The translations under genes were made by a program, and so were the position numbers. Below the pieces are notes generated by a model, which saw only the letters and a list, made by a program, of their open reading frames with translations, ran no database searches and was not told the origin of the DNA. A stretch of DNA of 62,609 bases, the filler included, from Deltaproteobacteria bacterium (GTDB lineage: Bacteria > JAEEML01): the NCBI GenBank assembly GCA_016283195.1. It is 4 parts of 4 records of this genome, joined end to end, with 100 filler letters (N's around TTAATTAATTAA, not from the genome) between each part and the next. Parts side by side here need not be neighbours in the genome. Positions count along the whole stretch, not along the records: positions 11,402 to 31,402 come from JAEEML010000122.1; 3 more parts are not named here. One strand, written 5' to 3'. Below, one piece after another: positions 2,739 to 37,894 of the stretch; positions within the stretch are counted from its first letter, which is position 1; each line of letters starts with the position of its first letter.

Positions 2739-3338
2739 TTATTTTATCCCGCTTTTTAGCTCTTTGGCCGCAGTTTTTATAGCTCCCCGCACCAAAGCGC
2801 CGAGAGCTATGGCCCCATCTTTGGCCTCTTTTATCCCTTCCGGGCAAGCTTCGTGGTAGCGTTTTACATAATTAAAGCCGCTCTCAGATGCGATGGTAAA
2901 AGCCAGATTCAGGTGGCACTCCTCCTCTTTTTGCCAGGAGAGATCGGAGATAAAAAGATTAATATTTTTAGCCTCTTTGGGCGGATTTTCGCCGGGCAAT
3001 ATGAGGTTTATGCCCTCGGCGTAAAGCGCCTCTTTCAGCGCATAGGCCATAAGTTCGCCAGGCATAGCAGCCCACTCTTCATCGGCGAGAAAAGTGGCTG
3101 AGCCATCTTTATTTAAAGTGACAATAGCCGAGCGGTTATAGAGCGGGTGCACTTTTATATCGTTTAAAACAAGGGGCGTCAGGGTGGCGGCATCATCGGC
3201 CCGGCTTTCGGCCGGCGCACTTTCCTCACCGGTAGCGGCCATATTGAGGGCAATATAGGTGACAACGTGGCCTTTGCCGCCAAAACAGGCAGCCATAAAG
3301 AGAAAAGCCGGCAAAATAAAGGGCAGAATTTTGGCCAT
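2739..3338 (-). CDS. ABC-transport auxiliary (PqiC-like) lipoprotein
   Basis: Lipobox-like MAAC; YNRSAIV...EEWAAMPGELMA resembles the PqiC family motif. Confidence 0.6.
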   Translation of the reverse strand: MAKILPFILPAFLFMAACFGGKGHVVTYIALNMAATGEESAPAESRADDAATLTPLVLNDIKVHPLYNRSAIVTLNKDGSATFLADEEWAAMPGELMAYALKEALYAEGINLILPGENPPKEAKNINLFISDLSWQKEEECHLNLAFTIASESGFNYVKRYHEACPEGIKEAKDGAIALGALVRGAIKTAAKELKSGIK

Positions 3339-3349
3339 AGCGCCCCCTT

Positions 3350-4753
3350 TTAGTAGCGGTAATAATCCGCTTTAAAAGGCCCGTCTTTAGGCACGCCGAT
3401 ATAGTCGGCCTGTTCCTGCGTGAGCTTCGTGAGTTTAGCTCCCAGGTGGTCCAGATGGAGGCGAGCCACCTCTTCGTCGAGCTCTTTGGGGAGTGTATAA
3501 ACGCCAATTTCGCGCTTTGTCTGCCAGAGCGAAAGCTGAGCCAAAGTTTGGTTGGTAAAGCTATTAGACATAACAAAGCTGGGGTGCCCGGTGGCGCAGC
3601 CCAGATTGACAAGGCGCCCCAGGGCCAAAAGAATAATTGAGTGGCCGTCGGGGAAGGTAAACATATCCACTTGCGGCTTGATATTGGTGTGCTTAATGCC
3701 CGGGAAGTTTTGCAATTTATCCACTTCAATCTCGTTATCAAAGTGGCCGATATTGCAAACAACGGCTTTGTCTTTCATCTTAGCCATGTGTTCGATGGTG
3801 ATGACATGGCAGCAACCGGTGGTGGTGACAAAAATATCGGCATCGGGGAGCGCATCTTCCACGGTGCAAACTTTATAGCCGGCCATGCAGGCCTGGAGGG
3901 CGCAAATGGGGTCAACTTCGGAGACCATAACCCGCACATGGCTACCGGCGAGCGACTGGGCCGAACCTTTACCCACATCGCCATAGCCGCAGACCATAGC
4001 CACTTTACCGGCTAGCATGAGGTCGGTGGCCCGGCGGATACCGTCCACTAGTGATTCGCGGCAACCGTAGATGTTGTCGAATTTGGACTTAGTTACCGAG
4101 TCGTTGACATTGATGGCCGGGAAGAGCAGCTCGCCGGCCTTTTCCAGCTGATAGAGGCGGTGCACGCCGGTAGTTGTCTCTTCGGAAACGCCCTTAAACT
4201 CTTTTACCAGGCGGTGGAAGAAGGTGGGGTCTTCAGCTAGCCGCCCCTTGAGCACTTTATTGACTATTTTGAGCTCATGATTTTCCGTCGGCTCATCTAA
4301 AATAGCGCTATTTTCTTCGGCTTTGTAGCCGCGTTGAATAAGGAGCGTGGCATCGCCGCCGTCATCCACCACCAGATGGGGTCCCTTCCCCTCCGGCCAG
4401 GTGAGCGCTTTTAAGGTAAATTGCCAGTATTCATCTAAAGTTTCGCCCTTATAGGCAAAAACGGGCACACCGCCGGCGGCAATAGCGGCCGCCGCGTGAT
4501 CCTGCGTGGAATAAATATTACATGATACCCAGCGGATATCGGCGCCAAGTTCTTTTAATGTTTCAATTAAAACAGCCGTTTGAATGGTCATGTGCAGGGA
4601 GCCCATGATGCGCGCCCCTTTGAGGGGCTTATCTGCGCTATATTTCTTGCGCGTTGCCATGAGGCCGGGCATTTCGCATTCGGCGAGAGCTATCTCTTTG
4701 CGGCCAAAATCGGCCAGGTTTATGTCTTTAACCAGATATTCGCTTGCAACCAT
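3350..4753 (-). CDS. ahcY: Adenosylhomocysteinase
   Basis: [46 protein letters not shown] and NLGCATGHP motifs. Start placed at the ATG after the GGAG RBS. Confidence 0.97.
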
Positions 4754-4831
4754 ATAAATCTCCATAGGGAAACAATTTCCCAAAATAAAAGCGGCGCTAC
4801 TTTAACATGAAAAGAAAGAAGATCAAGTGTG

Positions 4832-5773
4832 CTAGTTAAGCATATATTTGGTCGGGTCTTGGGGAATGCCGTTCAGGCGCACTTCATAGTGCAGGTGCGG
4901 GCCGGTGGAACGGCCGGTATTGCCTACCATGCCGATGAGCGAGCCGCGTTTAACTTTATCGCCCAGTTTTACGCTATAGCCGGACATATGCGCAAAGTGG
5001 CTCTGAATGCCAAAGCCGTGATCGACAATAACGGTCATGCCGTAGCCGCCACGGGTGCCCACCCAAATAACGGTGCCATCGGCGGGAGCAAAAATTTCGC
5101 TGCCCTCGGGAGCGCCGATATCGAGGCCCTTATGCATAACCCGCTCGCGGGTATATGGGTCGCGGCGAATACCGAAAGCCGAAGTCTTCATGCGCGAATG
5201 GACTGGCCAAATAGAAGGAGTGGAGCGCAGAAGCACCTTTTGATAATCGAGATAACGGCTTAATGAGCTCAGCTTATCTTCATCGGTAACCGCCCGCTCT
5301 TCGAGAGCATCGATTTTAGCGGAAAGAATGCGGGTGGTGAGGGCGGAATCAAGCGGCTCATTGACAGAATCAATGCGCTCACCGCTGGCAAAGAGCACGG
5401 AGGGGCGCTCGCCGCTTTCCAAAGTGCCGAGAGGGCCCATGGCCAGGTTGCGCTCGCTGTCGTTTAGCTGAGTAATGGCCCGTACTTTAACATCAAATTG
5501 CTCAATGCGCTCTAAAAGGCGCTCAATGCGCGAAACTTTGGAACGCATGGTGATGAGCTGCGATTCCAGTTGGCGCTTTTCTGTGCGAATATCGCGAGTT
5601 TCCCGCAGCTCTTTTACGGTGCTGAAGTAATGAAATGTAAATATGGAAATAACGGCAATTACTGTAAAAGACAGTAAACCGAGATTGATGATAGTTTGTC
5701 TTTTTACCTTAAAACTCTTGGTGGTTGAAGAGCGTTCGGGTACAATCATGACAGTAAAAAAGCGGCTCGCCAC
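4832..5773 (-). CDS. M23 family metallopeptidase
   Basis: N-terminal TM and coiled coil, then HKGLD and GRSTGPHLHYEV motifs. Confidence 0.93.
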   Translation of the reverse strand: MASRFFTVMIVPERSSTTKSFKVKRQTIINLGLLSFTVIAVISIFTFHYFSTVKELRETRDIRTEKRQLESQLITMRSKVSRIERLLERIEQFDVKVRAITQLNDSERNLAMGPLGTLESGERPSVLFASGERIDSVNEPLDSALTTRILSAKIDALEERAVTDEDKLSSLSRYLDYQKVLLRSTPSIWPVHSRMKTSAFGIRRDPYTRERVMHKGLDIGAPEGSEIFAPADGTVIWVGTRGGYGMTVIVDHGFGIQSHFAHMSGYSVKLGDKVKRGSLIGMVGNTGRSTGPHLHYEVRLNGIPQDPTKYMLN

Positions 5774-6027
5774 TATATAAGCTCCTTGAGTCCTTTTTAG
5801 GACAATATAAAGCTGACAAAAAGCCGGGTTTTATACACCCGGTGCCCTGTGGTACCAAAAGTGGGTGAAAACGTCAAGATTTGGTACAATTTTATGCATA
5901 ATTTTTTAAAAAAACCAAATAATGACTTGCCTAAAGTAACTTTTTTAAAGTTCACGCCGCGATTGCGGGCCGAGCGTCATTGTGCTAGTTAGACTCTGGC
6001 CCCAGTTGGCCGCGGAGAAGTAAAAAA

Positions 6028-7095
6028 ATGTTTAAAGTAAGTACCAAAGAAGATGTGCGCCGGGCTATCGGCTATATGCTCATTGGCCGTTATCACGGCA
6101 TGGAACCGGGCGCCGAAGTACGCGAGGTTTTGCAAAGCGGTATGTGCCGTAATATTATTGAATTTGCCGATAATACCAAGGATTTGGAACAACTGGCCGA
6201 AAATCACCGCCAGTTTACCGAATGGAGCGGCGGCTGTCTGTTTTCTGTCGATCAGGAGGGCGGCCGGGTGCAGCGCATAAAAGCGCCGCTTACTGTTTAC
6301 CCGCCGATGGGTGTTCTGGCGCAAAAAAACGACTCCGAACTTATGGAACTGGTGGGCAAGGCCATGGCTTTGGAGCTTAGAGCGCTTGGCTACCATATAG
6401 ATTTTGCACCTGTTGCCGATGTCAATTCCAACCCGGATAATCCGGTTATTGGTGACAGATCTTTTGGAAATAGCCCGGAAAAAGTGGCGCTTTTAAGCTG
6501 TGCTTTTATCAAAGGGTTGCAGGCCGGCGGTATTGCTGCTTGTGCCAAGCACTTTCCAGGTCATGGTGACAGCAGCAAAGACAGCCACAAAGAATTACCT
6601 ATTATCGCTCTTAATCTGGACGAAATCCGCGCTATACACTGGCCGCCTTTTAAAGCGGCAGCCGCCGCCGGTGTGGCCCTGATGATGAGTGCTCATCTTT
6701 TGGTGCCGGCGCTTGATGGCGTGCGGCCGGCTACCCTTTCTCCCACTATTATCGGCCGCCTCCGCGAAGAGATTGGCTTTAATGGCCCGGTGGCGAGCGA
6801 TGCTCTTGATATGGGCGCACTTTCGGAAATTCCTCTTGAAAAGCGGGCCATCGGCGCAGTTTTGGCTGATTTGGATCTTTTAACACTTTGCGGCGGTATC
6901 AGTGATGTCCCGGCGGCTTTTGAGGCCCTGGTGCATGCGGAAGAGCAGGGGATTATTACTAAAGCGCGGCTGGAAAAATCTCTGCAGCGGCTCAAAAGTC
7001 TTTGGAATAATTATTTTCGTCCGCAACCGGACTCTCTCGAAAGTATTGAAAATTTAACCGAGGTCGCGCGCCTCGAGCTGGAAGAGCGGTGGTAA
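6028..7095 (+). CDS. nagZ: Beta-N-acetylhexosaminidase (GH3)
   Basis: VDQEGGRVQR, KHFPGHG..DSH and SDALDMGAL motifs. Confidence 0.9.
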   Translation: MFKVSTKEDVRRAIGYMLIGRYHGMEPGAEVREVLQSGMCRNIIEFADNTKDLEQLAENHRQFTEWSGGCLFSVDQEGGRVQRIKAPLTVYPPMGVLAQKNDSELMELVGKAMALELRALGYHIDFAPVADVNSNPDNPVIGDRSFGNSPEKVALLSCAFIKGLQAGGIAACAKHFPGHGDSSKDSHKELPIIALNLDEIRAIHWPPFKAAAAAGVALMMSAHLLVPALDGVRPATLSPTIIGRLREEIGFNGPVASDALDMGALSEIPLEKRAIGAVLADLDLLTLCGGISDVPAAFEALVHAEEQGIITKARLEKSLQRLKSLWNNYFRPQPDSLESIENLTEVARLELEERW

Positions 7096-7096
7096 A

Positions 7097-7783
7097 ATGG
7101 CGGTGATAGCCGGTAAAAACATAACAATAGGCGAGGAAATAAAAGCGCGCTGCCCGGAATATGTTGGCGCCGCTTTTTATGCCGAAGTGGTAAATAGCGC
7201 CTACTCTGCCCCTCTTTGGGCGGAGATAAACGCTTTTGTTGCCGATTATCGGGCCAAATATACGCCCGATTCTTTAAAAGAACTGCCGGCCATTATGGCT
7301 ACCCGCCGGGCCTATAAGCGCTGCGGTAAAGATCCGAGCCGCTACCGCCCATCCGGTGAAGCACTGGTGCGCCGCACTCTGCAAGGTAAGGAACTTTACC
7401 AGATAGATACTCTGGTGGATTTGATAAACCTCGCTTCCATTGCCTACGGCTACAGTATCGGCGGCTTTGATTTTGATAAAATTTCCGGCCCCACCATAAC
7501 TTTGGGCATCGGCCGCGAGGGCGAGCCTTATGAGGGCATCGGCCGCGGCGCGCTCAACATTGCCGGCCTGCCCGTTTATCGCGACTCTATGGGCGGTATC
7601 GGCACGCCGACGAGCGACAACGAGCGCACCAAACTTGGCCTTTCTACCCGCCGCCTTTTGGCTATTGTTAACGGTTATGACGGTGATAAAGTAAATACCT
7701 TGGCCTGTGCCAAATATATAGGCGAACTGGCCGAAAAATACGCTGCAGCCGTGAATTGCTGCCTGATTTGTTACGCAATTTAA
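7097..7783 (+). CDS. B3/B4 (PheRS-beta editing-like) domain protein
   Basis: YKRCGKDPSRYRPSGEALVRR and LVDLINLASI motifs. Confidence 0.85.
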   Translation: MAVIAGKNITIGEEIKARCPEYVGAAFYAEVVNSAYSAPLWAEINAFVADYRAKYTPDSLKELPAIMATRRAYKRCGKDPSRYRPSGEALVRRTLQGKELYQIDTLVDLINLASIAYGYSIGGFDFDKISGPTITLGIGREGEPYEGIGRGALNIAGLPVYRDSMGGIGTPTSDNERTKLGLSTRRLLAIVNGYDGDKVNTLACAKYIGELAEKYAAAVNCCLICYAI

Positions 7784-7792
7784 ATATTTTCC

Positions 7793-7821
7793 TTGACAAG
7801 AGAAAAATATCTCGTTATCAT
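7793..7821 (+). promoter_or_regulatory. sigma70 promoter of the str operon
   Basis: TTGACA-N17-TATCAT upstream of rpsL. Confidence 0.85.
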
Positions 7822-7886
7822 GCCGCACCCTAGAGGGGCCTCTGGTGGCCCTTGGACTTGTAGTTTATCGATGTAAGGAGATTCGG

Positions 7887-8258
7887 ATGCCTACTATAAA
7901 CCAGCTCGTTCGTAAAGGACGGGAACAAAAGAAGGCCAAAAACAACGCTCCGGCTTTGAAGCGTTGCCCCCAAAAACGCGGTGTGTGCGTGCGTGTTTAC
8001 ACCACCACCCCTAAAAAACCTAACTCCGCTTTGCGTAAAGTCGCTCGTGTGAGACTGGTTAACGGTTTGGAAATTACTACTTATATCCCCGGTGTGGGCC
8101 ACAATTTGCAGGAACACTCCGTGGTGCTCATCCGTGGTGGCCGTGTTAAAGACCTCCCCGGTGTTCGTTATCACATCGTTCGCGGTTCTCTCGATACCAC
8201 CGGTGTTGAGGGCCGTAAACAGTCCCGTAGTAAATACGGTGCCAAGCGCCCGAAATAA
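7887..8258 (+). CDS. rpsL: 30S ribosomal protein S12
   Basis: [21 protein letters not shown] and [21 protein letters not shown]. Confidence 0.99.
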
Positions 8259-8278
8259 GTTAGAGGGCGGAGGATATT

Positions 8279-8749
8279 ATGCCAAGACGTAGAGAAGTTG
8301 TTAAAAGAAAGATCAATCCGGATCCCAAGTTTGGTGATAAATTAGTGGCTAAATTTGTCAACGGCCTGATGGAACGCGGCAAAAAGAGCACTGCCGAGCA
8401 CATTCTGTATAGCGCTCTGGAACTTGTTGGTGAGCGCACCAAAGAAGAGCCTTTGAAAGTCTTCAAAAAGGCTATGGACAACGTGAAACCGCAACTGGAA
8501 GTTAAGAGCCGCCGTGTCGGTGGTGCTACTTATCAGGTTCCGGTGGAAGTCGGTGCTGCTCGCCGCGAAGCATTAGCTATGCGCTGGCTCATCGGTTATT
8601 CCCGTGATCGCAACGAGAAGACCATGGCCGAGCGTCTTGCTGCTGAGCTCATTGATGCTGCCGCCGGGCGTGGTAGCGCGGTGAAAAAACGCGATGATAC
8701 TCACCGTATGGCCGAAGCTAATAAAGCTTTTGCTCACTATCGCTGGTAG
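8279..8749 (+). CDS. rpsG: 30S ribosomal protein S7
   Basis: [17 protein letters not shown] and [13 protein letters not shown]. Confidence 0.99.
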
Positions 8750-8840
8750 TTTTTCTTTTTTGCTTAATGGTGTTTTGAGCTCGCTGAGCTTTTGATCTTT
8801 GATAACCTGTGGCTGTTGGGCCTCATGTGGAGAAATGCAG

Positions 8841-10931
8841 ATGGCTAATACATCGGTTGATTATCCCTTGGACAAGATCCGTAATATCGGACTTGCGGCC
8901 CATATAGATGCAGGTAAAACCACCACCACCGAACGTATCCTCTACTATACAGGTATAACTCACCGCATCGGTGAGGTCGATGACGGCTCCACGCAAATGG
9001 ACTGGATGGAACAGGAGCAGGAGCGGGGCATTACCATTACCTCGGCCTCTACTACCGCCATTTGGAAAAATTATCGCATAAACGTTATCGACACTCCCGG
9101 ACATGTGGATTTTACTGCCGAAGTTGAGCGCTCAATGCGTGTTCTTGATGGCGTTATTGTGGTTCTCTGTGCCGTTGGTGGTGTGGAGCCGCAAAGTGAA
9201 ACCATCTGGCACCAGGCTGAACGCTACGGTGTGCCGCGTATCGTCTTTGTTAATAAGATGGATCGCACCGGGGCTGACTTTTTGGGAGCCGTTGAAAGCC
9301 TTAAAGAGCGCCTCGGGGCCCATGGTGTGCCGGTAGAATTGCCTCTCGGCAAAGAAGATACCTTTGAAGGTGTGATTGATCTCATCACCATGAAAGCTAT
9401 TCGCTATAATGGCGAAACACTGGGCGCCACCTTTGATGAGGTAGCTATTCCGGAAGAGTATGCCGATTTGGCCGAGGAATACCGCCAGAACCTTCTGGAG
9501 GCGGCGGCCGAATATGATGATGCTCTGATGGAAGCCTATCTTGGCGGCGAAGAAATAACCCCGGAGCAGATTAGAGCAGCTCTCAGAATCGGCACTTTGA
9601 AGCGGGAGATCTTTCCGGTCTTTTGCGGCTCTTCTTTTAAAAATAAGGGCGTGCAACCGCTTCTTGATGGCGTTATTGATTATCTGCCTTCTCCTCTTGA
9701 TGTGCCGCCGGTTATCGGACGCCACACCAAGACGGGTAAAGAGGTAGAGATTAAAGCCGATAATGATGCGCCGCTGGTGGGGCTCGTCTTTAAGATTGCC
9801 ACCGATCCATTTGCCGGACAGCTGGCCTACATTCGCATTTATTCCGGTGTGCTGCGTGATGGCATGACTATTTACAACGCCACCTTGGATAAACGCGAGC
9901 GCCTCGGCAAGCTCCTGCATATGCATGCCGCCCGCCGCGAAGAAATTGCCGAAAGCGGTGCCGGTAATATTTGTGCCGCCGTTGGCCTTAGAAGTGTGCG
10001 CACCGGCGATACCATTTGCGATCTTAAGCAGCAAGTGGTTATTGCCGGCATGGAATTTCCCGAGCCGGTTATTTCTGTAGCTTTGGAGCCGAAGAGCAAA
10101 GCCGATGAAGACAAAATGAACGACGCTTTGCAAAAGCTGGAGTTTGAAGATCCCACTTTTAGCACCCGCCGCGACAAAGAAACCGGCCAGCTTCTTATTA
10201 GTGGCATGGGTGAGCTCCATCTGGATATTATTGTCGATCGCTTGAAACGCGAATTTGGTGTTTCTGCTAAAGTCGGCAAGCCGCAGGTCAGCTACCGTGA
10301 GACTGTTACCGCCGCCGCCCAGGCGGAAGGACAGTTTATCCGTCAGACCGGTACCGGCAAAGGGCAATACGGCCATGTTATTTTGCGCGTTGAACCGAGC
10401 GAAAAAGATGGTTCGGAATTTGTCCGCGCTTGTAAAGATAGTGAAGTACCGCCTATTTATACCGAGGCGGTTAAATCCGGCGCTCTTTCCGAGATGGAAT
10501 ACGGCACGCTGGCCGGTTATCAAATGATTAACATTAAAACAACTCTTCTGGGCGGTTCTTTTAATGAAGTTGATTCCAGCGATTTAGCCTTCCATGCGGC
10601 TTCCTCCATAGCTTTTAGAGATGCCGTTAAGGCTGCTTCGCCGACTATACTTGAGCCCATTATGGATACCGAGATTGTTGCTCCCGGCGAATATATGGGC
10701 GATATAGTTGGTGATATCAATAAGCGCCGCGGTAAAGTAATAGCCATTACTCCGCGTGGTGTGTTGCAAATTATCAAAGCCAAGGTGCCTTTGGCCGAGA
10801 TGTTTGGTTATGCTACCGGACTCCGCTCTCTTACCCAGGGGCGGGCCTCATATAGTATGCAATTTGATTATTATGAGCGCGTTCCGGCTAATATTGAACA
10901 AAATATGATAGCAAAACTTGGAGGGTACTAA
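8841..10931 (+). CDS. fusA: Elongation factor G
   Basis: [32 protein letters not shown] and GMGELHL motifs; str operon position. Start chosen from the GGAG RBS. Confidence 0.97.
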
Positions 10932-11058
10932 GATTTTGCTTGCTTTTTAAACTGTTTTTGGTGTATAAACCGCTAACTCGTTTGCAAGGATGCAACGAGC
11001 TGGCAAAGAAATAACGACCACAAGTTTGTAAGTGGTGGATTTTGAAAGGAAAAGTGCA

Positions 11059-11301
11059 ATGGCAAAAGAAAAGTATGAAAGCACAAAAATTCACGTCAAC
11101 GTTGGTACCATCGGCCACATCGACCACGGTAAAACCACATTGACTTCCGCTCTGACCAAAGTTTCCGCCGATCGCGGTATGGCCAAAGCCGTTACCTACG
11201 CCGAAGTGGCCAAAGCCTCTGCCAGCCAGGGCTTCCGTAACGATATGAAAACCGTTACCATCGCTACTTCTCACGTTGAATACAATTCCGAAAAACGTCA
11301 C
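11059..11301 (+). CDS. tuf: Elongation factor Tu, N-terminal fragment cut by the gap
   Basis: [23 protein letters not shown] and TSHVEY, following fusA. Confidence 0.93.
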
Positions 11302-11401: not shown

Positions 11402-11403
11402 AA

Positions 11404-11631
11404 TACGGCCAGGGGGAGAGCCATGCCAAATATGAGCATGTGGAGCGTTTAGTGAAAATGCACCTTAGCGGGGAGAAAATATCCCTGGCCGATGAAAGAC
11501 CGCTGCAGTTTGAGCTTTTGGATAATAATGTTACGCGCAACTGGGAAGGGGTGGCCATCTGGCCGGGGCATGGCTTTTTTGTGGTTACCGACAAATTCCC
11601 GGGCTCTATTTTAGGCTTTATTGCTTTTTAA
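11404..11631 (+). CDS. Hypothetical protein, C-terminal fragment
   Basis: Open frame from the contig edge ending NWEGVAIWPGHGFFVVTDKFPGSILGFIAF*. Confidence 0.55.
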   Translation, partial: YGQGESHAKYEHVERLVKMHLSGEKISLADERPLQFELLDNNVTRNWEGVAIWPGHGFFVVTDKFPGSILGFIAF

Positions 11632-11661
11632 AATCTAAAATTTAAACTCAAAGATAAAAAA

Positions 11662-11797
11662 CGGCTCCCGGTGTGTAATTAAGAGTGGTTGACTTGGAAG
11701 TCGTGGCAGAGGGGAGAGGTCGCGCGTACTCGCGGAAACTACCTTTTAAAAATCGGCCGCAGCCTAAGCCGGCCAGAGCCGGTAACACCGAAAGCCG
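11662..11797 (-). ncRNA. Candidate structured ncRNA, copy 1
   Basis: Closing stem CGGCUUUCGGUGU/ACACCGGGAGCCG with two G-U pairs on the minus strand. Hairpins CCGGC-UCUG-GCCGG and GGC-UGCG-GCC, followed by a U6 tail. Homologous to 37755-37894. Confidence 0.75.
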
Positions 11798-11802
11798 GAG
11801 GA

Positions 11803-11831
11803 ATTGTGCGCCAGATGAAGAATTATGTCAA
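11803..11831 (-). promoter_or_regulatory. Putative sigma70 promoter of ncRNA copy 1
   Basis: Minus strand TTGACA-N17-CACAAT; predicted +1 near G11796, at the start of the closing stem. Confidence 0.6.
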
Positions 11832-11870
11832 TTATATGTTACGAATTATGGCCAGTTATAACAGGCGGAT

Positions 11871-14114
11871 TTACATTAAGTTAAACCAATATTTGTCGCT
11901 AAAGAGGCTTTTGTGTGATTGGCAACCTGTGCACTGGGTAATGTTATCATTGCCGTCTAAAATACGGAAGCCGGGGCTCATTTGGCCTTTTTGCCATAAG
12001 CCAATTCCGCCATGTATAGTATAATTGTGTTTGTTAAGAACAGTTTTATCGACGGTGACAGAGGAGCCGGAAGCTTTAAGGCAGGCAATATCGCCGTAGG
12101 CATTGAAAACCATAGCATCACAGGCAGTTAGCTCACGATTGGTGTGGCTCTTTACAAACAGGCCTTTGAATATTGTTTCATGTACGCAGGCCGCGGTTTT
12201 TTCAATTGTATAGGTGTTGCCGGTATTGGAGCCTTGTACACCTTTAAAAATATACCTATATTTCTGGCAATATTTTTTGCCGGAAGAGTTGTACTCCCAC
12301 TCACAATTGGTAGTAATGTTATAATTGCTGTCGCCGCCTTTTCTGGTATATGGAACATTATTGCGATGTTCCCCGACTTCGTTACAGTGATAATAATGTT
12401 CACCTGTGGGTTCAATCATTCTGCCAAGCCAAGCATACATACCGGGGCTACAGGTATCTTTGCTGCCGCCGTTGCGCTGAGCATAGCCTGAAGCGGTGTG
12501 GCGGGTTAAGAGCAGCAGAGTATTATCATTATTCATGGTGAATTTTTTGCGCAGGGAGACAGGAGCAGCTCTTTCGCCTTCGACGCCTTCGATGCTCACA
12601 TAGGGCAGAGTGAGGTTGCTGCTGACGAATTTTGCACTGGTGCTGAGTACTGTTTTGGCTTTTTCAAACCAAACATCATCACTAATTTTACTGGTGCAGC
12701 ATTTCACGCCGTCCAGGCTGCTTGTAATATAGTAGCTCACTGAGGCTACAGAGCTCAGAGAGCCGCTGTTAATATGTTTTGCTCTGATTTGGGTGATATA
12801 CTTGCCGTTTTTTACGTTGCTATCCTGCACCAGTGTGCAACTGCCGCGGCCGGACGGAGCCCATTTGGCATCATCGATTTTGCCTGCCGGGGCGCTGCGG
12901 CACTCATAAGAATAAGCGCGACTTTCCAGCATATCGTGTTCGAAAGCAACAGCAGTGTCATTACCAGCTTGATCTTTCCAGCCGACAACATCTTTGTTGC
13001 AGGCATTGTTAAAGGGCTTATCGGCATTTATGGTCGGGGCGTTTACGATTACAGAGGTTACCGTGTTGCAGTCGGCACCTTCCCAGCCGCTTTTGCAAAT
13101 ATTGCATAAGTCGCCGTCCCAGTTGCCATTACATTCACACAGGCCTGTGCCGCCGAGACCATCGCTGCAGGAGCCATGCGCGCCGCAGTCCGGACAGGTG
13201 TCTTGGCAATTATCGCCATAGAAACCGGAACGGCAATTTGAGCAATCATCGAGCCAGCGGGTTTGGTCGCAGCTTGGCGGTAAAACGCTCGGCGTGCAAA
13301 CCGATTTTTCGCCGATTTCGCCCTGGCAAGTGTAACTATCTTCAACAGTGCAACCGGCGCTGCAACCATCCTCGTTATCGGAGTTGCCGTCATCACAAGC
13401 TTCGCCGGATTCTCTTACGCCGTTGCCGCATTTGGGCTCATCGCCGGGATTATCGTTTTTGGGTGTGCAAACCGATTTTTCGCCGGGAGTATTAGTGCAA
13501 TTATGGGTCTCTTCAACCTGGCACTGGGCATTGCAACCGTCATGGTCGTTTTTATTGCCGTCATCGCAGGCTTCTTTGCCAGCAAGAAGATGGCCGTCAC
13601 CGCAAACGTTTAGTTTGCAAGTTGTCAGGCATTCTTTGCTGAGGTCGTTATTATTGCCGTCATCGCACTCTTCCTTGCCTACTACTTGGAATTTATCGCC
13701 GCATATCGGAGTGCATATCGATTTGCCATCGCTGTTTTCTTTGCAATTCCAGCCTGTTTCAATAGCGCAACTGGCACTGCAACCATCGCCCGGAGTATTG
13801 TTTTCGTCGTCGCAATCTTCGGTCGGTTCTTTAATGCCGTTGCCACAGACAACATAGGTGCCCTCGGCACACACTTTGGCATCATTGCAATGTTGATTAC
13901 TGGCGCAATCTTTGTTGGTATTGCATACTTTGTGGCAGCGCTCCATGTAACAACTTAGTCCGGAGGCACACTCTTTGGGATCTGAGCAGGCATAACCTTC
14001 AAGGGTGGCGCCGGAACCATCTTTCCCGGGAGTGACACTATTGCCACAGGCATTAAGCAAAAGTAGAAAAGTTGCTACCAAAGAGCTGTTTAACAATAGC
14101 CGCTGTTTTCCCAT
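11871..14114 (-). CDS. Cys-rich surface lipoprotein with a conserved C-terminal domain (paralog of 37944-42308)
   Basis: Lipobox LNAC; ECDDGN/CGNG myxobacterial-type Cys repeats and EGF-like units; ~400-aa C-terminal domain shared with the 1454-aa protein. Start at the ATG after AGGAGG. Confidence 0.85.
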   Translation of the reverse strand: MGKQRLLLNSSLVATFLLLLNACGNSVTPGKDGSGATLEGYACSDPKECASGLSCYMERCHKVCNTNKDCASNQHCNDAKVCAEGTYVVCGNGIKEPTEDCDDENNTPGDGCSASCAIETGWNCKENSDGKSICTPICGDKFQVVGKEECDDGNNNDLSKECLTTCKLNVCGDGHLLAGKEACDDGNKNDHDGCNAQCQVEETHNCTNTPGEKSVCTPKNDNPGDEPKCGNGVRESGEACDDGNSDNEDGCSAGCTVEDSYTCQGEIGEKSVCTPSVLPPSCDQTRWLDDCSNCRSGFYGDNCQDTCPDCGAHGSCSDGLGGTGLCECNGNWDGDLCNICKSGWEGADCNTVTSVIVNAPTINADKPFNNACNKDVVGWKDQAGNDTAVAFEHDMLESRAYSYECRSAPAGKIDDAKWAPSGRGSCTLVQDSNVKNGKYITQIRAKHINSGSLSSVASVSYYITSSLDGVKCCTSKISDDVWFEKAKTVLSTSAKFVSSNLTLPYVSIEGVEGERAAPVSLRKKFTMNNDNTLLLLTRHTASGYAQRNGGSKDTCSPGMYAWLGRMIEPTGEHYYHCNEVGEHRNNVPYTRKGGDSNYNITTNCEWEYNSSGKKYCQKYRYIFKGVQGSNTGNTYTIEKTAACVHETIFKGLFVKSHTNRELTACDAMVFNAYGDIACLKASGSSVTVDKTVLNKHNYTIHGGIGLWQKGQMSPGFRILDGNDNITQCTGCQSHKSLFSDKYWFNLM

Positions 14115-14181
14115 TGATAACCTCCTTCCGGGACAAGCCCGCACGGTGCCGTATTATAATAGATGAATAGAGCGTTGACAA
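14115..14181 (-). promoter_or_regulatory. sigma70 promoter and conserved 5' leader of Cys-rich gene 1
   Basis: TTGTCA-N17-TATAAT (14181-14153), then the leader ACCGTGCGGGCTTGTCCCGGAAGGAGG, similar to 42309-42369. Confidence 0.75.
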
Positions 14182-14300
14182 TAATGTCTAATAAGATAAT
14201 CAGAGCCTTTTGCCGCTTTAAAGAGGCCTGTGTGTTGACGCCGGCCCGCCTATTTGATACGAAAGCGCGAGTGTGCGGAGGAGTCCGCCAAAGGGGTTAA

Positions 14301-15386
14301 ATGATGACAGATGTAGAAAAAACTTCCCACTCTTCTTATGAAGCAGCTATTGAACGCAGTGCCAAGATAGAAAAAGATATTTTGGTAAATCCTAAAAAAT
14401 ACCGCGTGCTTACCGGGGATAGGCCCACTGGGCGCCTGCATATTGGGCACTACTTCGGCTCTTTGCAGAATAGAGTGCGCCTTTCTAAATTGGGCGTACC
14501 GACGATGATTCTCATTGCCGATTATCAGGTACTGACCGATCACGACGCTTTTGATAAAATTAGCCAAAATACCAAAGAGCTGGTTATTGATTACCTGGCA
14601 GCCGGGATAGAACCTGGTGAAGATGTTATAATATTTCCGCATAGTTATATTCCGGAAGCCAATCAGCTGATGCTGCCTTTCCTTACTTTGGTGAGCAATG
14701 CCGAGCTCAGCCGCAATCCCACGGTAAAGGAGGAAATTCAGTCGGCGGGGCTAAAGAATGTCAATGCCGGTATGTACACTTATCCTATTCATCAGGCTTG
14801 CGATATCCTCTTTTGCAAGGGCACGGTGGTGCCGGTGGGTAAGGATCAGTTGCCGCACATTGAGATTACCCAAACTATTGCCCGGCGTTTTAACAATAAG
14901 TTTTCGCCTGAAAAGCCCATTTTCCCCGAGCCGGAAGCACTTTTATCTAAGACTCCCAGCATTTTGGGGCTGGATGGCAGCCAAAAAATGAGCAAGAGTC
15001 GCGGTAATGCCATTATGCTCTCGGCAACGGAAGATGAGACAGCGGCGCTCATTAAAAAGGCCAAAACCGATTCCGATCGTCACATTACCTATGAGCCGGA
15101 AACACGCCCGGAGGTGGCCAATTTATTGCAACTGATAGCTCTTTGCACCAAAGAAACCCCAGAAGCGGTGGCCGAGCGCATTGGTGATGGCGGCGGTGGT
15201 ATGCTCAAAAAAGAGCTCACAGCAGCACTTAATGAAGAATTACGCCCACTTAGAGCCAAAAGAGCCGAGCTGGAAAAGAATCCTGATTATATAAGAAAAG
15301 TGCTTCTTGATGGTGCCGAGCGGGCGCGGGCTATAGCCAAAGCCACTCTTGATGAGGTGCGCGCCGCCATGAATATGGTGATTTAA
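14301..15386 (+). CDS. trpS: Tryptophan--tRNA ligase
   Basis: TGDRPTGRLHIGHY, VPVGKDQLPH and KMSKS motifs. Confidence 0.97.
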   Translation: MMTDVEKTSHSSYEAAIERSAKIEKDILVNPKKYRVLTGDRPTGRLHIGHYFGSLQNRVRLSKLGVPTMILIADYQVLTDHDAFDKISQNTKELVIDYLAAGIEPGEDVIIFPHSYIPEANQLMLPFLTLVSNAELSRNPTVKEEIQSAGLKNVNAGMYTYPIHQACDILFCKGTVVPVGKDQLPHIEITQTIARRFNNKFSPEKPIFPEPEALLSKTPSILGLDGSQKMSKSRGNAIMLSATEDETAALIKKAKTDSDRHITYEPETRPEVANLLQLIALCTKETPEAVAERIGDGGGGMLKKELTAALNEELRPLRAKRAELEKNPDYIRKVLLDGAERARAIAKATLDEVRAAMNMVI

Positions 15387-16315
15387 GCGCTTGGATCCGC
15401 TATTTTTAGCTCCCTTTCAATATATGCCACATCATCTTGCATAGCCGCTATAATGGCCGCCGGGCCGGAAAAACGGCGGCTTTCGCGCACAAATAGTGTG
15501 AGCTCCAGCGCCACTTTTTGGCCGTAAAATTCACCGCCGCTATAGTGTGGCAGGTAGGCCTCAACAGTGGGCAAAGTAGCGCCAAAAGTGGCTGGCGCTC
15601 CGATGTGGACTGCTGCTAAGTAGCGGATATTATTAAGGCTAAGAAAGCCGCCATAGACGCCAGCCAGCGGCAGGAGCTCATGAGTGGCAATATTGGCTGT
15701 GGGGTAACCCAGCTGGCGTCCTCTTTGTGCTCCGGGTACTACTTCGCCATATAGTGTGTAATTATGGCCTAAAAGTTCATTGGCTACCTTGATATCTCCG
15801 GCTGAAAGCAGTGAGCGGATGCGGGTAGAGGAAATCGAAAGGCCGTCGGCAGTTGTTATGTCTTCTAATAAGTGGGCAGAAATATTATGCTTTTCGGCTA
15901 AATCCTTTAATGTGGCAAAATTGCCGGAGCGCTCATGGCCAAAGGAGAAATCACGCCCGACAGCTATATCCTTAACCCCCATAGGCAAGAGTATTTTCTC
16001 GAAAAACTCTGCCGGGGTGAGGGCGGTAAAATCAGGGCTGAGCTCTTGTACCAGCGTTTTTTGCACCCCCAGAGCGGCTAGTGTTTCCAGCCTTTTTTCC
16101 AGGGGCATTAGGAGGGGAAAGCTTTTTTTCCCCAAGGTGGCTGGGTGGGGGTGAAAAGTCAAAACGGCGCTTATCATTTGGCCGACATGCGCTTTATCAA
16201 CAATGTGGGCGATGAGTTTCCGGTGACCTTTGTGCACGCCGTCGAAAGTGCCAATAGCCAGAGCCAGAGAACCGCAGTTTTTGGGGAAATTAGTGTAATT
16301 ATAAAAAATATCCAT
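15383..16315 (-). CDS. ribF: Riboflavin kinase/FAD synthetase
   Basis: IGTFDGVHKGH, ISSTRIR and GRQLGYPTAN motifs. Confidence 0.95.
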   Translation of the reverse strand: MDIFYNYTNFPKNCGSLALAIGTFDGVHKGHRKLIAHIVDKAHVGQMISAVLTFHPHPATLGKKSFPLLMPLEKRLETLAALGVQKTLVQELSPDFTALTPAEFFEKILLPMGVKDIAVGRDFSFGHERSGNFATLKDLAEKHNISAHLLEDITTADGLSISSTRIRSLLSAGDIKVANELLGHNYTLYGEVVPGAQRGRQLGYPTANIATHELLPLAGVYGGFLSLNNIRYLAAVHIGAPATFGATLPTVEAYLPHYSGGEFYGQKVALELTLFVRESRRFSGPAAIIAAMQDDVAYIERELKIADPSA

Positions 16316-16318
16316 AAG

Positions 16319-17323
16319 TTAGTTACCAACAGTTGTTTTAGAACGGGCCAGCAGCCACAGGAAAAACGGCCCGCCAAAGAATGAGGTTATTACTCCCACT
16401 GGCAGGCTGGTGTCAAATAAGCCAAAGCCCAGGCGGGCGGCGGTGTCGGCCAATAATAAAAGGGTGGCGCCGCCAAAGAAAGAGCAGGGGAGGAGCAGGC
16501 GGTGGTCCGGCCCGATGATGAGGCGTAGAATATGGGGCACCACCAGGCCGATAAAGCCAATCATGCCCACGATGGAGACCACGGCAGCCACGATAAGCGA
16601 GGCGGCGAGGTATATGACCCAGCGCAGGCGTTCCACATTTATGCCCAGGGTGCTGGCCACCTTTTCTCCCAGAGCCAGAGTGTTGAGTTTGGGAGCCAGC
16701 AAAGTGAGCAATAGAGCGCCGCTAAGGACGAGCACTAGAGCCAATATGGACTCATTCCAGGCCGGGTAGCCCAAAGAGCCCATCAGCCAAAAGAGGAGCT
16801 CCTGCGCCTTGGTGGCCGAGGCCGCCACTTTTAGCACGGTGATGAGGCTCGAGGCAAAGGCATTGATGACTACGCCGGTTAAAAGCATGGTGAGCGCCGA
16901 ATTTTGCGGAAAGCGCCGGGCCAGCCACATAGTGAAAATAATGGTTAATAAGGCGCCGCCAAAGGAGCAGAGCGGGATGAGGAAAATACTGCCGGTAAAG
17001 ATAATGGCAATAGTGCCGCCTAGGGCGGCGCCGGCCGAGACGCCCATGACGTAAGGGTCGGCCAGAGGATTGCGCAACAGAGCCTGAAAAGCCACACCGC
17101 TGATGGCCAGGGCGCCGCCGGTGGCATAGCCCAAAAGGGCGCGTGGGGCGCGTAGCCAGAGGAGTGAACCGTTATAAGTGTCGCTGCTAAAGGTAGTGGC
17201 TCCGCAGGTCATGGCCAAAAAGAGAGCCAGAAGAGAGAGTAGGCAGGTCAATAAAACACTGCCGATAAGCCTCCTGCGCGAAAGTGGCTCACGATGAGTT
17301 TCTTTTGTTTGCCAGATGGGCAA
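16319..17323 (-). CDS. FecCD/BtuC-family ABC permease
   Basis: LRAPR, QALLRNPLADPYVMGVSAGA and GMIGFIGLVVPH motifs. Confidence 0.92.
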   Translation of the reverse strand: MPIWQTKETHREPLSRRRLIGSVLLTCLLSLLALFLAMTCGATTFSSDTYNGSLLWLRAPRALLGYATGGALAISGVAFQALLRNPLADPYVMGVSAGAALGGTIAIIFTGSIFLIPLCSFGGALLTIIFTMWLARRFPQNSALTMLLTGVVINAFASSLITVLKVAASATKAQELLFWLMGSLGYPAWNESILALVLVLSGALLLTLLAPKLNTLALGEKVASTLGINVERLRWVIYLAASLIVAAVVSIVGMIGFIGLVVPHILRLIIGPDHRLLLPCSFFGGATLLLLADTAARLGFGLFDTSLPVGVITSFFGGPFFLWLLARSKTTVGN

Positions 17324-17451
17324 TTGGTGCCTCCGGTAAAGCCCTCTTATTGATTATAGTTCAAGCGGCAGAGTGCTGGCCTAAGCCGCGAATGCCGCTA
17401 TATAGCATGTTTTGGTGAAAAAGTGGCAGCTGTTTTTTATGGTAACATGGA

Positions 17452-18732
17452 TTAGTTGGAGGCATCCCTTACACAACGCACGGATCTTGGCCACTCGCTG
17501 GCTTTAGCATCAATATTGGTAATATTATAAGATATGGTGAAAGCATAGCCACCAGCGCCACCGGCCTTAGTGGCCGACCAAAAAGAGGCGGTGGTGGTGT
17601 TATATTGAATTTCGTTGTATGAACCGGCGGGCAGAGCCGAAAAGCCATAAGTATTTTTCCCATCTTCCCAGTTTGTATCTCTTAAATTGTCGGAACGAGT
17701 TTGGTCATCATTACCAGCTGTTTGCTGCAAATTATCGTATTCATCTTTGCTCGGCAGCCGCCAGCCGCTGGGGCAGAAATCATCGCCGGTGGCTATGGTC
17801 CAGGTATAAAGGAGACCATATTCGCTGTCGTTATTGGCCTTACCGTTAGAATGATAATAATCTGTGTCTTCTGTGCCAACTACGTGGCGATAATTCTCGG
17901 CCATCCATTCCAGGCCATCTATGATGACAGTTTTGTAAGTAATATTATCCCGGTTGTCTTTTACCGAGCCGTAGGTCTGGCAACTTTCTCCAAAGCCGCC
18001 ATTTATGCACTCATTGCAATTCTCGCCGGTCATCAGCGAGTTGGTGCAGGTGCAGTCTGCGCCGGAGCGGCCATCTTTACAGGAAGAGCAGTCATCACCG
18101 GTGCGCCCTTCGGCACAGCTATTGCAATAATAGCCGGTCCAATGCGCGTTGCAAACATCGCAGGCATCGCCTTCCCAGCCGGTATCTTCTTCGCATATGC
18201 AGGTGCCGTCGCCATCTTTGCCTTCATCGCAAGTGCCATGGCCGCAGCTTTCCGGGCAGGGCTGACAATCGTCGCCATAAAAGCCGCTGGAACATTCGTC
18301 GCAATTTTCACCGGTAAAGCCGGTTGGGCAGCCGGTTGGCTCATCGCAGTTAGCACCTTGCCAGCTATCAGCGCATGTATCGCAATTTTGCCCGCTGAAA
18401 TTGCCGGTACAGGCGCCAGTGCATTTGCCGTTGCCATCTACGCCCAGGCTGGGAGTGCCGTTTTTACAAGTTGGCGCTTTGTCGCAATTGGCTCCCCAGA
18501 AATTGCCGCTGCAAATGTCACAGTTAGCGCCGCTCCAGCCGGTACCTTGCGGACAATTGGTATTATTATTGTTGTTATTATTATTATTGTTGTTATTGTT
18601 GTTATTGCCTTTTTGTTCGGTTTTGCTGCTCGCTCCATTATTTTCTGCCGGCGATTTTTCCTTTTCGCCGCAAGCTGTAAGAGCCAGAGTTAAAGCGCAA
18701 AATAGCGCCAATTTGCCGGATGTTTTCTTCAT
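17452..18732 (-). CDS. Lipoprotein with EGF-like repeats and a C-terminal Fibrobacter major paralogous (FISUMP) domain
   Basis: Lipobox LTAC and an N15 tract; YKTVIIDGLEWMAENY, YGLLYTW, CPSGWRLPS, YGFSALPAG and SVRCVRD motifs. Confidence 0.88.
   Translation of the reverse strand: MKKTSGKLALFCALTLALTACGEKEKSPAENNGASSKTEQKGNNNNNNNNNNNNNNNTNCPQGTGWSGANCDICSGNFWGANCDKAPTCKNGTPSLGVDGNGKCTGACTGNFSGQNCDTCADSWQGANCDEPTGCPTGFTGENCDECSSGFYGDDCQPCPESCGHGTCDEGKDGDGTCICEEDTGWEGDACDVCNAHWTGYYCNSCAEGRTGDDCSSCKDGRSGADCTCTNSLMTGENCNECINGGFGESCQTYGSVKDNRDNITYKTVIIDGLEWMAENYRHVVGTEDTDYYHSNGKANNDSEYGLLYTWTIATGDDFCPSGWRLPSKDEYDNLQQTAGNDDQTRSDNLRDTNWEDGKNTYGFSALPAGSYNEIQYNTTTASFWSATKAGGAGGYAFTISYNITNIDAKASEWPRSVRCVRDASN
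18562..18606 (-). repeat. (AAY)15 trinucleotide tract encoding poly-Asn
   Basis: 15 consecutive AAT/AAC codons. Confidence 0.95.
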
Positions 18733-18813
18733 AACCTTTTTTCTCCTTATAAAAAGTAAAATTCATTGGCGAAATTGCCAATATTTAAGCCACCTGGTTG
18801 TAGGGGCGCGGCA

Positions 18814-18840
18814 GTTCTATTTTTTTTTTTTTGATGTCAA
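18814..18840 (-). promoter_or_regulatory. Putative promoter with an A13 homopolymer in the spacer
   Basis: Minus strand TTGACA-TC-A13-TAGAAC (15-nt spacer) upstream of the FISUMP gene. Confidence 0.45.
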
Positions 18841-18944
18841 GTGTTTTTATAACGCAGTGAAAATAAAGGAAAAAATAATGTAAGTGATCGGCGTCACAAT
18901 GGTAATATTAGAGTCTAAAAGGTGTAGCAGGTGCAGCGCTTGTT

Positions 18945-19409
18945 TTACGGCGCGCTGGCGCGGACACAATATTGAGTCCGGCCAAAGAGCGGAGCGCCAA
19001 TATAACCGCGTAATTTAAGGCGCTTGCCACCGTCGATGAGCATAACTTTTACTTTGTAATATTTGCCGCTGCCGGTGTCTAAAAGTTGCCCATTACCCCA
19101 GGTGTCTTTATCTATGGGGGCGAGGTTTTCCACTATTTTGAGGCCGACAATGGGCACATTTTTGAGCGCTCCCTCACATTTTTCGCAGAGCGGATTGGAA
19201 TTTTCATTAGATAAAATCTTGACGATTTGCCCGGATATTTTGCCATCCTGCATGGTGACCTTGATAATGCCCGGGGCTTCATCCTTGGTAACTGTTTGCC
19301 AATAGCCAACCGGGGAGGTGAGATCTTCTTCCTCTGCGCCGGCTAGAGCAGGAAAAGCTAAAAATAACGCACAGATAACAAAGAATGATACTTTCTCGTC
19401 TATTCTCAT
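18945..19409 (-). CDS. DUF2147 family secreted protein
   Basis: Signal peptide; SPVGYWQT, CEKC...PIVGLKI and LKLRGYIGAPLFGRTQ motifs. Confidence 0.85.
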   Translation of the reverse strand: MRIDEKVSFFVICALFLAFPALAGAEEEDLTSPVGYWQTVTKDEAPGIIKVTMQDGKISGQIVKILSNENSNPLCEKCEGALKNVPIVGLKIVENLAPIDKDTWGNGQLLDTGSGKYYKVKVMLIDGGKRLKLRGYIGAPLFGRTQYCVRASAP

Positions 19410-19417
19410 AAAAAACC

Positions 19418-19873
19418 TCAATGGCTTAAAATATTCTCTAAAAGCCCCTGGCAACCAGCCTGTACTTCTCGCCAGGTGCGGGCAAAATCATCGCTATACC
19501 ACGGGTCGGCCACTTCGCCGGGGGTGTCGGTATAATCCAGAAGCAGGTGCACTTTGTTTTCCGGGTCATCATCAAACACCCGGCGCATATTGCGGATATT
19601 GGCCATATCCATGCCGATTATCAGGTCAAAGGCCCGGTAATCATTTTTGGTTATTTGCCGCGCCCGTTTGCCTTCGCAGCTGATGCCGTGTTCTTCTAAA
19701 AGGCGGCGCACCGGCGGATAAACGGGATTACCCAATTCTTCGGTGCTGGTGGCGGCTGAGGCAATAACAAAATCGGCGGTAAGTCCCCGTTTTTGCACCA
19801 GATCTTTCATGACAAATTCAGCCATGGGGCTGCGGCAAATATTGCCGTGACAGACAAAAAGTATCTTAGTCAT
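19418..19873 (-). CDS. Low-molecular-weight protein-tyrosine phosphatase
   Basis: FVCHGNICRSPMAE and DPWY motifs. Confidence 0.95.
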   Translation of the reverse strand: MTKILFVCHGNICRSPMAEFVMKDLVQKRGLTADFVIASAATSTEELGNPVYPPVRRLLEEHGISCEGKRARQITKNDYRAFDLIIGMDMANIRNMRRVFDDDPENKVHLLLDYTDTPGEVADPWYSDDFARTWREVQAGCQGLLENILSH

Positions 19874-19908
19874 CTTAATACCGCAAGAGAATAATATGGT
19901 GTCCAAGG

Positions 19909-20166
19909 TCAGGTATCGGAATTACTGTCGGATACTTCTGTTAACCAATAACCCTTGAGCGCTTTTTTCCAACACTCGTATTTGACATTTTCTTTTTCCG
20001 GGGCCATGCCGCAAAGTTCTTGACATTGTTTGGTTCCTTGGCAGGTGCCCAGGCTTTCGGGAACATTACAATCAGTCTCTACATTACATTTATTGGACTC
20101 GCCACAAGCCGGAAGAAGGGCAGAGGCAAAAATGAAAGCCATAGTTGATTTCTTTAAATATTTCAT
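19909..20166 (-). CDS. Small Cys-rich lipoprotein
   Basis: Lipobox LPAC, six further Cys and an AGGAG RBS. Confidence 0.65.
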   Translation of the reverse strand: MKYLKKSTMAFIFASALLPACGESNKCNVETDCNVPESLGTCQGTKQCQELCGMAPEKENVKYECWKKALKGYWLTEVSDSNSDT

Positions 20167-23154: not shown

Positions 23155-23175
23155 AGTGGAAAGTCCTAAAGAAGA

Positions 23176-37590: not shown

Positions 37591-37749
37591 GGCTTTTCCG
37601 GTGAGCACCCAGCGCCCTTTTTGCGCCGACCCCTCGCGAGAAATAAGCCCTTCATTCTTTAGTTTCCTGATATAGAATTTTACTAAATCACGTTTTATAC
37701 CCAGTTTTTCGGCCAGTTCGGTTTGCGAAATCTGCGGAATAGAAGGCAA
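37576..37749 (-). CDS. 57-aa winged-HTH mini-ORF or gene remnant
   Basis: Manual translation from TTG: (M)PSIPQISQTELAEKLGIKRDLVKFYIRKLKNEGLISREGSAQKGRWVLTGKALAGD*. Too short for the ORF track. Confidence 0.6.
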   Translation of the reverse strand: MPSIPQISQTELAEKLGIKRDLVKFYIRKLKNEGLISREGSAQKGRWVLTGKALAGD

Positions 37750-37754
37750 AAAGT

Positions 37755-37894
37755 GGCTCTTGGTGTGTAATTAGGAGTTTGTGACTTGGAAGTGAAGGGG
37801 AGAAGGAACGGTGACCGTCATATCGCGTACGAAAGAACCCGATTTTCACCAATTAGCCGCAGCTAAACTAGCTAAGCTAGTAACACCAAGAGCC
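37755..37894 (-). ncRNA. Candidate structured ncRNA, copy 2
   Basis: Perfect 12-bp closing stem GGCUCUUGGUGU/ACACCAAGAGCC. Hairpins CUAGC-UUA-GCUAG and UUAGC-UGCG-GCUAA, followed by ACUUUUU. Homologous to 11662-11797. Confidence 0.75.

Follow-up and report, generated by a model that had tools for sequence, protein, structure and literature searches.

The window, i.e., the whole 62,609-nt stretch of DNA analyzed here, derives from a metagenome assembly and comprises four contigs joined by N linkers (Table 1). Near the start of the second contig (20,001 nt) lies a candidate non-coding RNA (ncRNA), hereafter copy 2, which follows a lipoprotein gene and ends ~260 nt short of the contig edge. The fourth contig holds a diverged version of the same element, copy 1, behind a paralogous lipoprotein gene, together with a reverse transcriptase (RT) gene and the gene for a membrane protein. 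The C-terminal domain shared by the two lipoproteins is referred to as lipoC. The contigs were assigned to one genome by binning alone and are alike in composition (GC 47–49%, tetranucleotide r 0.88–0.95), and it is only through this binning and similarity that both RNA-bearing contigs are attributed to the same genome. Copy 2 had been described as lying on a contig without an RT. Our searches found no homologue of the RT or of its membrane partner on contig 11402–31402, and the whole window contains a single RT and a single membrane gene. Moreover, a convergent plus-strand ORF fills the stretch past the element and leaves no room 3' of it, which excludes an RT directly downstream.

Table 1. 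Features of the two loci, with coordinates counted along the window.
Feature	Coordinates	Strand	Remarks
Contigs (joined by N linkers)	1–11301, 11402–31402, 31503–34559, 34660–62609		
Convergent ORF	11404..11631	+	3' end only; runs off contig start; bounds cassette
ncRNA copy 2, ~140 nt	11656..11797	-	Fold, stem pairing, family-model alignment over 11666–11793(-)
P1 closing stem, copy 2	11797–11785 with 11662–11674	-	13 bp
P2 hairpin, copy 2	11782–11769	-	5 bp, loop UCUG
P3 hairpin, copy 2	11766–11753	-	Short; loop UGCG at 11761–11758
Middle of copy 2	between P3 and 3' block	-	Variable, ~55 nt, less structured
3' block, copy 2	11701–11675	-	27 nt, conserved, single-stranded
U6 tail, copy 2	11661–11656	-	Immediately after stem
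Promoter-like TTGACA-N17-CACAAT	11803..11831 (11831–11803)	-	10/12 positions match; 6 nt before P1
Lipoprotein gene, 757 aa	11871..14144	-	Cys-rich repeats + C-terminal lipoC; paralogue of 37944–42308; ORF intact
ncRNA copy 1	37748..37894	-	Diverged paralogue of copy 2
P1 closing stem, copy 1	37894–37883 with 37755–37766	-	12 bp
P2, copy 1	37880–37868	-	
P3, copy 1	37866–37853	-	Loop UGCG
Lipoprotein gene, 1454 aa	37944..42308	-	EGF-like repeats + lipoC; follows membrane gene and RT
Membrane protein gene, 693 aa	42386..44467	-	Begins right after RT stop codon
Reverse transcriptase gene, 446 aa	44468..45808	-	YGDD active site; only RT in window

The element and its diverged paralogue

The original prediction rested on the closing stem of copy 2, two positions of which were said to be C-A mismatches on the plus strand and U-G pairs on the minus strand. 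They lie at 11792/11667 and 11791/11668 and are as described, as are the run of six uridines after the stem and the 73-nt distance from the end of the lipoprotein ORF to the stem. RNAfold gave −51.3 kcal/mol for the minus strand (z −3.2, with 1 of 200 shuffles equally good and P1 recovered) and −54.0 kcal/mol for the plus strand (z −2.5, the stem interrupted by a two-base internal loop). Because the plus strand folds equally well, folding energy cannot pick the strand; it is the U-G pairs, the UGCG loop, the U tails and the strand common to copy 1 and the RT that argue for an RNA read from the minus strand. At the gathering score, Rfam had no match anywhere in the window.

Copy 2 had also been called the second of two copies, and the two sequence motifs quoted in support each occur exactly twice in the window, in copy 2 and at 37763–37793, with 0.03 and 0.10 occurrences expected by chance. 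Each copy lies 3' of a lipoC gene, at a spacing of 49 nt (copy 1) and 73 nt (copy 2); in copy 1, a U5 tail begins two nucleotides past the stem. The copies (136 and 140 nt) have 97 identical letters, i.e., ~70% identity, against a mean of 48.9 and a maximum of 80 in 300 shuffles, and contain two exact blocks of 12 nt each. Their flanks are far less alike, with 26 of 73 positions identical in the spacers and 35 of 96 in the 100 nt downstream. The neighboring lipoproteins are 51% identical over 477 C-terminal residues and 35% over the N-terminal 445; in the paralogous C-terminal domain, where 226 of 393 residues are identical, the four-fold sites of identical residues agree at only 25 of 82 positions (30%), i.e., they are saturated. 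Since neutral sites have been saturated while the element remains ~70% identical, the element has been kept by selection at both sites since an old duplication, which shows, as far as a comparison of sequences can, that both copies are under purifying selection.

The pattern of change within the stems agrees with the claim that selection acts on a structured minus-strand RNA. Among 22 homologous stem pairs, which were counted by a script because alignment A11 put gaps inside P2, four underwent compensatory double changes, two changed to U-G pairs valid on the minus strand only, and one, in P3 of copy 2, is broken. Together with the saturated four-fold sites nearby, these changes uphold that claim. 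A dispersed repeat, named beforehand as what would speak against it, is ruled out, the REP and MITE types included: the 62.6 kb contain two copies, both after lipoC genes, and 21 of 25 related genomes have one. In the metagenome collection, the exact 3' block was found in two contigs only, each equal in length to one of the window's own. A 328-nt DNA contig from run X1 matches 11532–11619 and continues, at a shorter distance, into a variant form of the 3' arm and tail of the element, which suggests that a related strain has a copy with different spacing.

Copy 2 was further credited with its own promoter. The hexamers in question are present upstream of the stem, and this part of the claim stands; however, a promoter scan found three sites in 1 kb against 1.8 expected by chance, so that the motif alone carries no weight. 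In copy 1, TTGAGG-N16-TATTAC can be read off the sequence equally far from the stem; the scanner's rule rejects it. As no terminator is predicted between lipoprotein gene and element in either copy, the RNA is as likely to form the 3' terminus of the lipoprotein transcript as to start from a promoter of its own. Four public runs, available as contigs only, bear neither way on transcription of the element: in RNA run X6 the contigs cover only 13261–13454 and 13869–14083 of the lipoprotein gene, and the contigs of run X11 gave no coverage.

The RT, its membrane partner and a covarying RNA family

The catalytic aspartates of the RT are invariant in 30 sequences, and its only Pfam match is RVT_1. 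Homologues of similar length number ~68 at 30–37% identity, with two closer relatives, P0001 (89%) and P0002 (53%); a scan of genome contigs with the single protein found no close relative. A profile scan of species genomes yielded 80 loci. In viral contigs, the 38 loci found were all partial and at most 29% identical, with no family member among them. The RT tree used below was built by a quick method from which 11 of 81 RT rows, with fewer than 300 profile positions, were excluded. Directly upstream of the RT, a 205-aa ORF (45837–46454, minus strand) carries an MXAN_5187 C-terminal domain (NCBIfam, E 2.6e-15) and has no homologue in the 80 RT loci.

The membrane protein was modeled with a pLDDT of 81. 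The model would comprise a MATE/MOP-fold domain (residues ~25–470) and a GGDEF-like cytoplasmic domain (~470–583). Foldseek matched it to MATE, Wzx and MurJ chains (E 2e-5, target TM ~0.6), VIA-align gave Z-scores of 21–23 over ~410 residues to MATE and Wzx chains, and the ESM Atlas likewise led to MOP flippases. Residues ~470–583 matched GGDEF domains with Z-scores of 8–10 over ~105–114 residues, modestly above the noise quoted for the tool; the matches include domains of the c-di-GMP-receptor type (BcsE, PelD). The protein has no Pfam hit, GGDEF included, and no PADLOC hit. As a sequence family it is discrete, with 766, 677 and 494 clusters at E-values of 0.001, 1e-10 and 1e-30, respectively, among 1.84 billion representatives. 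By tblastn, 52 of the 80 loci have a homologue directly 3' of the RT, and by phmmer 53; record titles place loci with this pairing in roughly ten phyla. In one branch of the RT tree (L055–L079, Bacteriovoracaceae and relatives), two other conserved downstream genes replace it.

In relatives, the gaps adjoining the RT contain long closing stems around a near-invariant hairpin, GAGAC-YGCG-GUCUU. A covariance model seeded on eight actinobacterial sequences (R1) was rebuilt on 21 hits (R2). MAFFT alignments (A3 and trials) failed to align P1 and P2, alignment A4 went unused with P2 and the outer P3 misplaced in three of its 11 rows, and L034 was omitted from the sources of alignment A8 because its match was hairpin-only (E 0.83). 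Over the 21 sequences of R2, base pairing holds in 95.1% of cells, compared with 35–44% in a control in which partners were slid by 1–3 columns, and both sides vary in 21 of 26 pairs; since the alignment was fitted to the model, the pairing figures are flattered. R2 matches 33 loci, all of them within the 53 that have the membrane gene and none among those that do not, leaving 20 of the 53 with no match. Read from the coordinates, the RNA lies upstream of the RT in 26 of the 33 loci, just after the membrane gene in six (all Chloroflexota by title), and upstream of the RT on the other strand in one. Twenty-one of 25 related genomes have exactly one match, at the RT locus, and four have none; the two-RNA arrangement of the window is therefore without precedent in the RNA family. 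These comparisons show an RNA that is conserved with covariation, tied to the RT module and single-copy in relatives, its architecture made up of the closing stem P1, P2, P3 (loop YGCG) and, toward the 3' end, a conserved single-stranded block.

The two window copies are likely homologous to this family, given their matching architecture and length, and are weak by score. With filters off, R2 run across the whole window gave 8.7 bits (E 1.7) for copy 1 and 6.0 bits (E 8.1) for copy 2, among 28 matches and inseparable from noise. Limited to the two regions named in advance, it gave E-values of 0.0072 and 0.035, which for R2 are rough; the best matches were full-length, on the minus strand, and ended within 4 nt of the stems. 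The R2 alignment places the model's CCGAUU after P3 opposite the same letters in copy 2. CAAG-N3-8-ACCACTC, a motif of actinobacterial members picked after both sequences had been viewed, has a single occurrence in the window, which lies within copy 2, against 0.09 expected.

Individual loci of the family have further features. L005 has a second hairpin, GGGAC-UGCG-GUCCC (13047–13060), after the membrane gene, uncalled by R2, and already has its RNA upstream of the RT. A conserved ~290-aa ORF immediately precedes the RT in four alphaproteobacterial loci (L003, L036, L052 and L053, three being of Rickettsiales type) and is positioned between RNA and RT in L036 and L052. From seven loci, ten flanking proteins were sampled (nine next to the module, one the second gene upstream); they include a TetR regulator, isomerases, a peptidase and an amino-acid kinase, and none belongs to a recognized defense-related Pfam family.

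A lipoC profile is present in 12 of the 80 RT loci, by record title nine Myxococcota or ‘Deltaproteobacteria’, one Bdellovibrionota, one Sandaracinaceae (filed under Myxococcota in the tree output) and one Enterobacteriaceae. LipoC lies just upstream of RNA and RT in ten of the 12 and convergent after the membrane gene in two. It is single-copy and RT-linked in 10 of 10 genomes, and lipoC-linked RTs cluster on the quick tree (six changes; 12.2 in shuffles, none of the 500 reaching so low a value), the window RT falling among them on a long branch. Its occurrence in a subset of loci, single-copy at the RT and clustered on the tree, marks lipoC, as judged from its distribution, as a third, lineage-specific module protein. 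Presumably, this clade ancestrally had the order lipoC gene, RNA, RT, membrane gene. In loci lacking lipoC, no distant relative was found upstream (hhalign probability 0.1), and the ORFs there look spurious. In a model of lipoC (pLDDT 75), residues 7–122 are FN3-like (Z ~8); the remainder, barely tested, gave nothing clear, and the ESM Atlas returned nothing for lipoC. Elsewhere in the window, 17875–18555 and 1704–2075 (minus strand) are genes with EGF-like, Cys-rich repeats akin to the N-terminal parts of the lipoproteins, without lipoC. Directly after the U tract of copy 1, at 37580–37745 (minus strand), a helix-turn-helix-like ORF that lacks a start codon is represented by its C-terminal ~55 codons; it has the look of a gene truncated when the RT module inserted.

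Comparison with known RT systems

Retron ncRNAs have a long terminal inverted repeat, 5' hairpins and a variable 3' part, and lie beside an RT and an effector gene. The element resembles a retron msr-msd in its ~140-nt length, its closing inverted repeat (an a1/a2-type repeat of 13 bp in copy 2 and 12 bp in copy 1), its 5'-side hairpins, and, as a family, the adjacent RT and partner gene; unlike a retron, it has no long msd-type hairpin. The RT itself rules a retron out: it scores 37.6 bits against the NCBIfam model retron_St85 (cut-off 235) and 23.5 bits against retron_Ec67 (cut-off 450), and retron RT chains, at E 1e-6 or worse, come far down the list of its solved relatives. The closest of these are a group II intron RT (E 8e-20), a 499-aa RT (9ioa), a Cas6-RT-Cas1 protein and DRT2.

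The class 2 UG/DRT systems (DRT2/UG2, DRT9/UG28 and DRT10/UG17) are among the nearest in layout, combining a stand-alone RT of group-II-intron-like or UG neighborhood with an adjacent conserved ncRNA; here too, a structured RNA occupies a fixed place beside the RT gene (33 of 53 loci, 21 of 26 pairs covarying). DRT2, DRT9 and DRT10 are described with cognate ncRNAs, and DRT10 with a SLATT membrane effector, in the portions of PMC9226505, PMC12632851 and 10.64898/2026.06.29.735271 available to us. DRT10 thus shares with the module a membrane protein partner, which in DRT10 is a two-TM SLATT protein and here a 693-aa protein with a MATE/MOP fold and a GGDEF-like domain; no SLATT effector is present, and with a MATE/MOP-fold protein as neighbor, membership in DRT10 (UG17) is rejected. 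So is membership in DRT2, DRT3, DRT4 or DRT5, as the RT falls under every curated NCBIfam cut-off (Drt2 68.3 vs. 390, Drt3a 65.7 vs. 200, Drt4 33.1 vs. 450, Drt5 29.9 vs. 550). The best PADLOC profile is UG26 (102 bits, E 5.4e-30, profile positions 34–389 of 398), yet the score is far below that of a member. For UG26, the available text of PMC9226505 (Mestre et al. 2022) lists 35 members, nine of them linked to a Vsr-like endonuclease, and names no membrane protein or ncRNA there. Two RNA copies per RT, each tied to a lipoprotein, are likewise unreported for class 2 systems in the portions of the literature covered. An RT linked to a MATE/MOP-type protein is not named in the available portions of PMC9226505, PMC12632851 and PMC2602772, whose supplementary tables may list the group. 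Targeted searches of the literature likewise turned up no account of the module.

What is new is the placement of the RNA in a widespread module of an RT and a MATE/MOP-like membrane protein. RT systems with an ncRNA (retrons, DRT2, DRT9, DRT10) have each revealed an unexpected way to make DNA, and the module described here combines a distinct RT lineage, a MATE/MOP-fold membrane protein and its own covarying RNA. Membrane effectors controlled by nucleic acids are a theme discussed for DRT10 in the portion of PMC12632851 available to us, and the mechanism proposed below is in line with it.

Readings of copy 2

Our preferred reading, which we regard as moderately probable, is that copy 2 is a functional ~140-nt minus-strand RNA gene and a cognate partner of the uncharacterized RT that is paired with the MATE/MOP-fold protein. 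Under this reading, the RT would bind the conserved P2/P3 region and the 3' block and use part of the RNA as a scaffold or template for cDNA, and the product would act on the membrane partner through its cytoplasmic domain. In the window organism, the ancestral order would have been permuted to RT, membrane gene, lipoC gene and RNA, and a second lipoC–RNA cassette copied elsewhere. In both cassettes, P1 and the U tract would end a transcript that starts either at a promoter belonging to the element or, the RNA then being the tail of the mRNA, at that of the lipoprotein gene. Use of copy 2 in trans by the RT at 44468–45808, as originally proposed, is plausible: one enzyme would serve two RNAs with common recognition elements that differ in the middle ~55 nt. 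The orphan RNA–lipoprotein cassette is a natural test of whether one RT uses more than one RNA.

That lipoC is single-copy and tightly linked to the RT locus is a pointer to an envelope-related role, one that is absent from known DRTs. In a bolder version, which we hold to be improbable, one RT serves two RNAs, each inherited with its own lipoprotein gene, and hands its product or RNP to the MATE/MOP-type protein, to act at or beyond the membrane with the lipoprotein. If true, the output of an RT system would be aimed at the cell envelope and not at phage DNA, with RNA–lipoprotein cassettes as exchangeable parts.

The most serious competitor of the preferred reading, an unlikely one in our estimate, is that copy 2 comes from another strain or species in the bin and works with that organism's own RT instead of the one at 44468–45808. 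The window consists of metagenome contigs joined by linkers, the paralogues are old enough for synonymous sites to be saturated, and the run X1 contig carries the 3'-arm variant in a slightly different context at 11619, all of which would fit such an origin. Against it, the contigs are alike in composition, and 10 of 10 relatives have a single lipoC, located at the RT. Furthermore, the cassette has the convergent ORF on one side and a divergent tryptophanyl-tRNA synthetase-like ORF on the other, so that it is detached from any RT whichever genome holds it.

A mere structured 3' UTR or terminator of the lipoprotein genes, unrelated to the RT, is quite improbable. It would account for the position of both copies shortly after lipoC genes, for the stem and U tract at their ends, and for the lack of a predicted terminator between gene and element. 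However, 24 of the 33 RNA loci have no lipoC, and even so their RNA adjoins either the membrane gene or the RT; L012 has the RNA ahead of the RT, with lipoC 4 kb away on the other strand. Nor does a 13-bp stem around ~110 nt of covarying hairpins resemble an ordinary terminator.

Still less probable is that a second RT locus was lost and left copy 2 behind as a decaying relic, as the contig without RT or membrane gene and the broken P3 pair might suggest; the neutral sites nearby are saturated, yet two exact 12-nt blocks and compensated stems persist, and the 757-codon lipoprotein ORF is intact.

Some diversity-generating retroelements (DGRs) have remote targets, one RT serving further cassettes elsewhere in the genome beside surface-protein genes. 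That the system is a DGR, the element being the template repeat for the lipoprotein C-terminus, might be suggested by the adjacency of the RT and a surface protein gene, which in relatives have a non-coding element in between, but we reject this reading as having a next to negligible chance: the RT is of another lineage, its nearest solved relatives being group II intron, DRT9-like and Cas-linked RTs, the fold-matched part of the modeled lipoC would be FN3-like, and no template/variable repeat pair was found, either as a repeat of the element within 11403–14300, lipoprotein gene included, or among 25 related elements compared with their own loci. Most of these gave no match or matches of 23–63 nt, the best at E 2.5e-06 (L026). 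The single match at E 1e-9 or better, in L014, is an adjacent tandem array of ~28-nt units at ~9600–9710, between the RNA and the RT.
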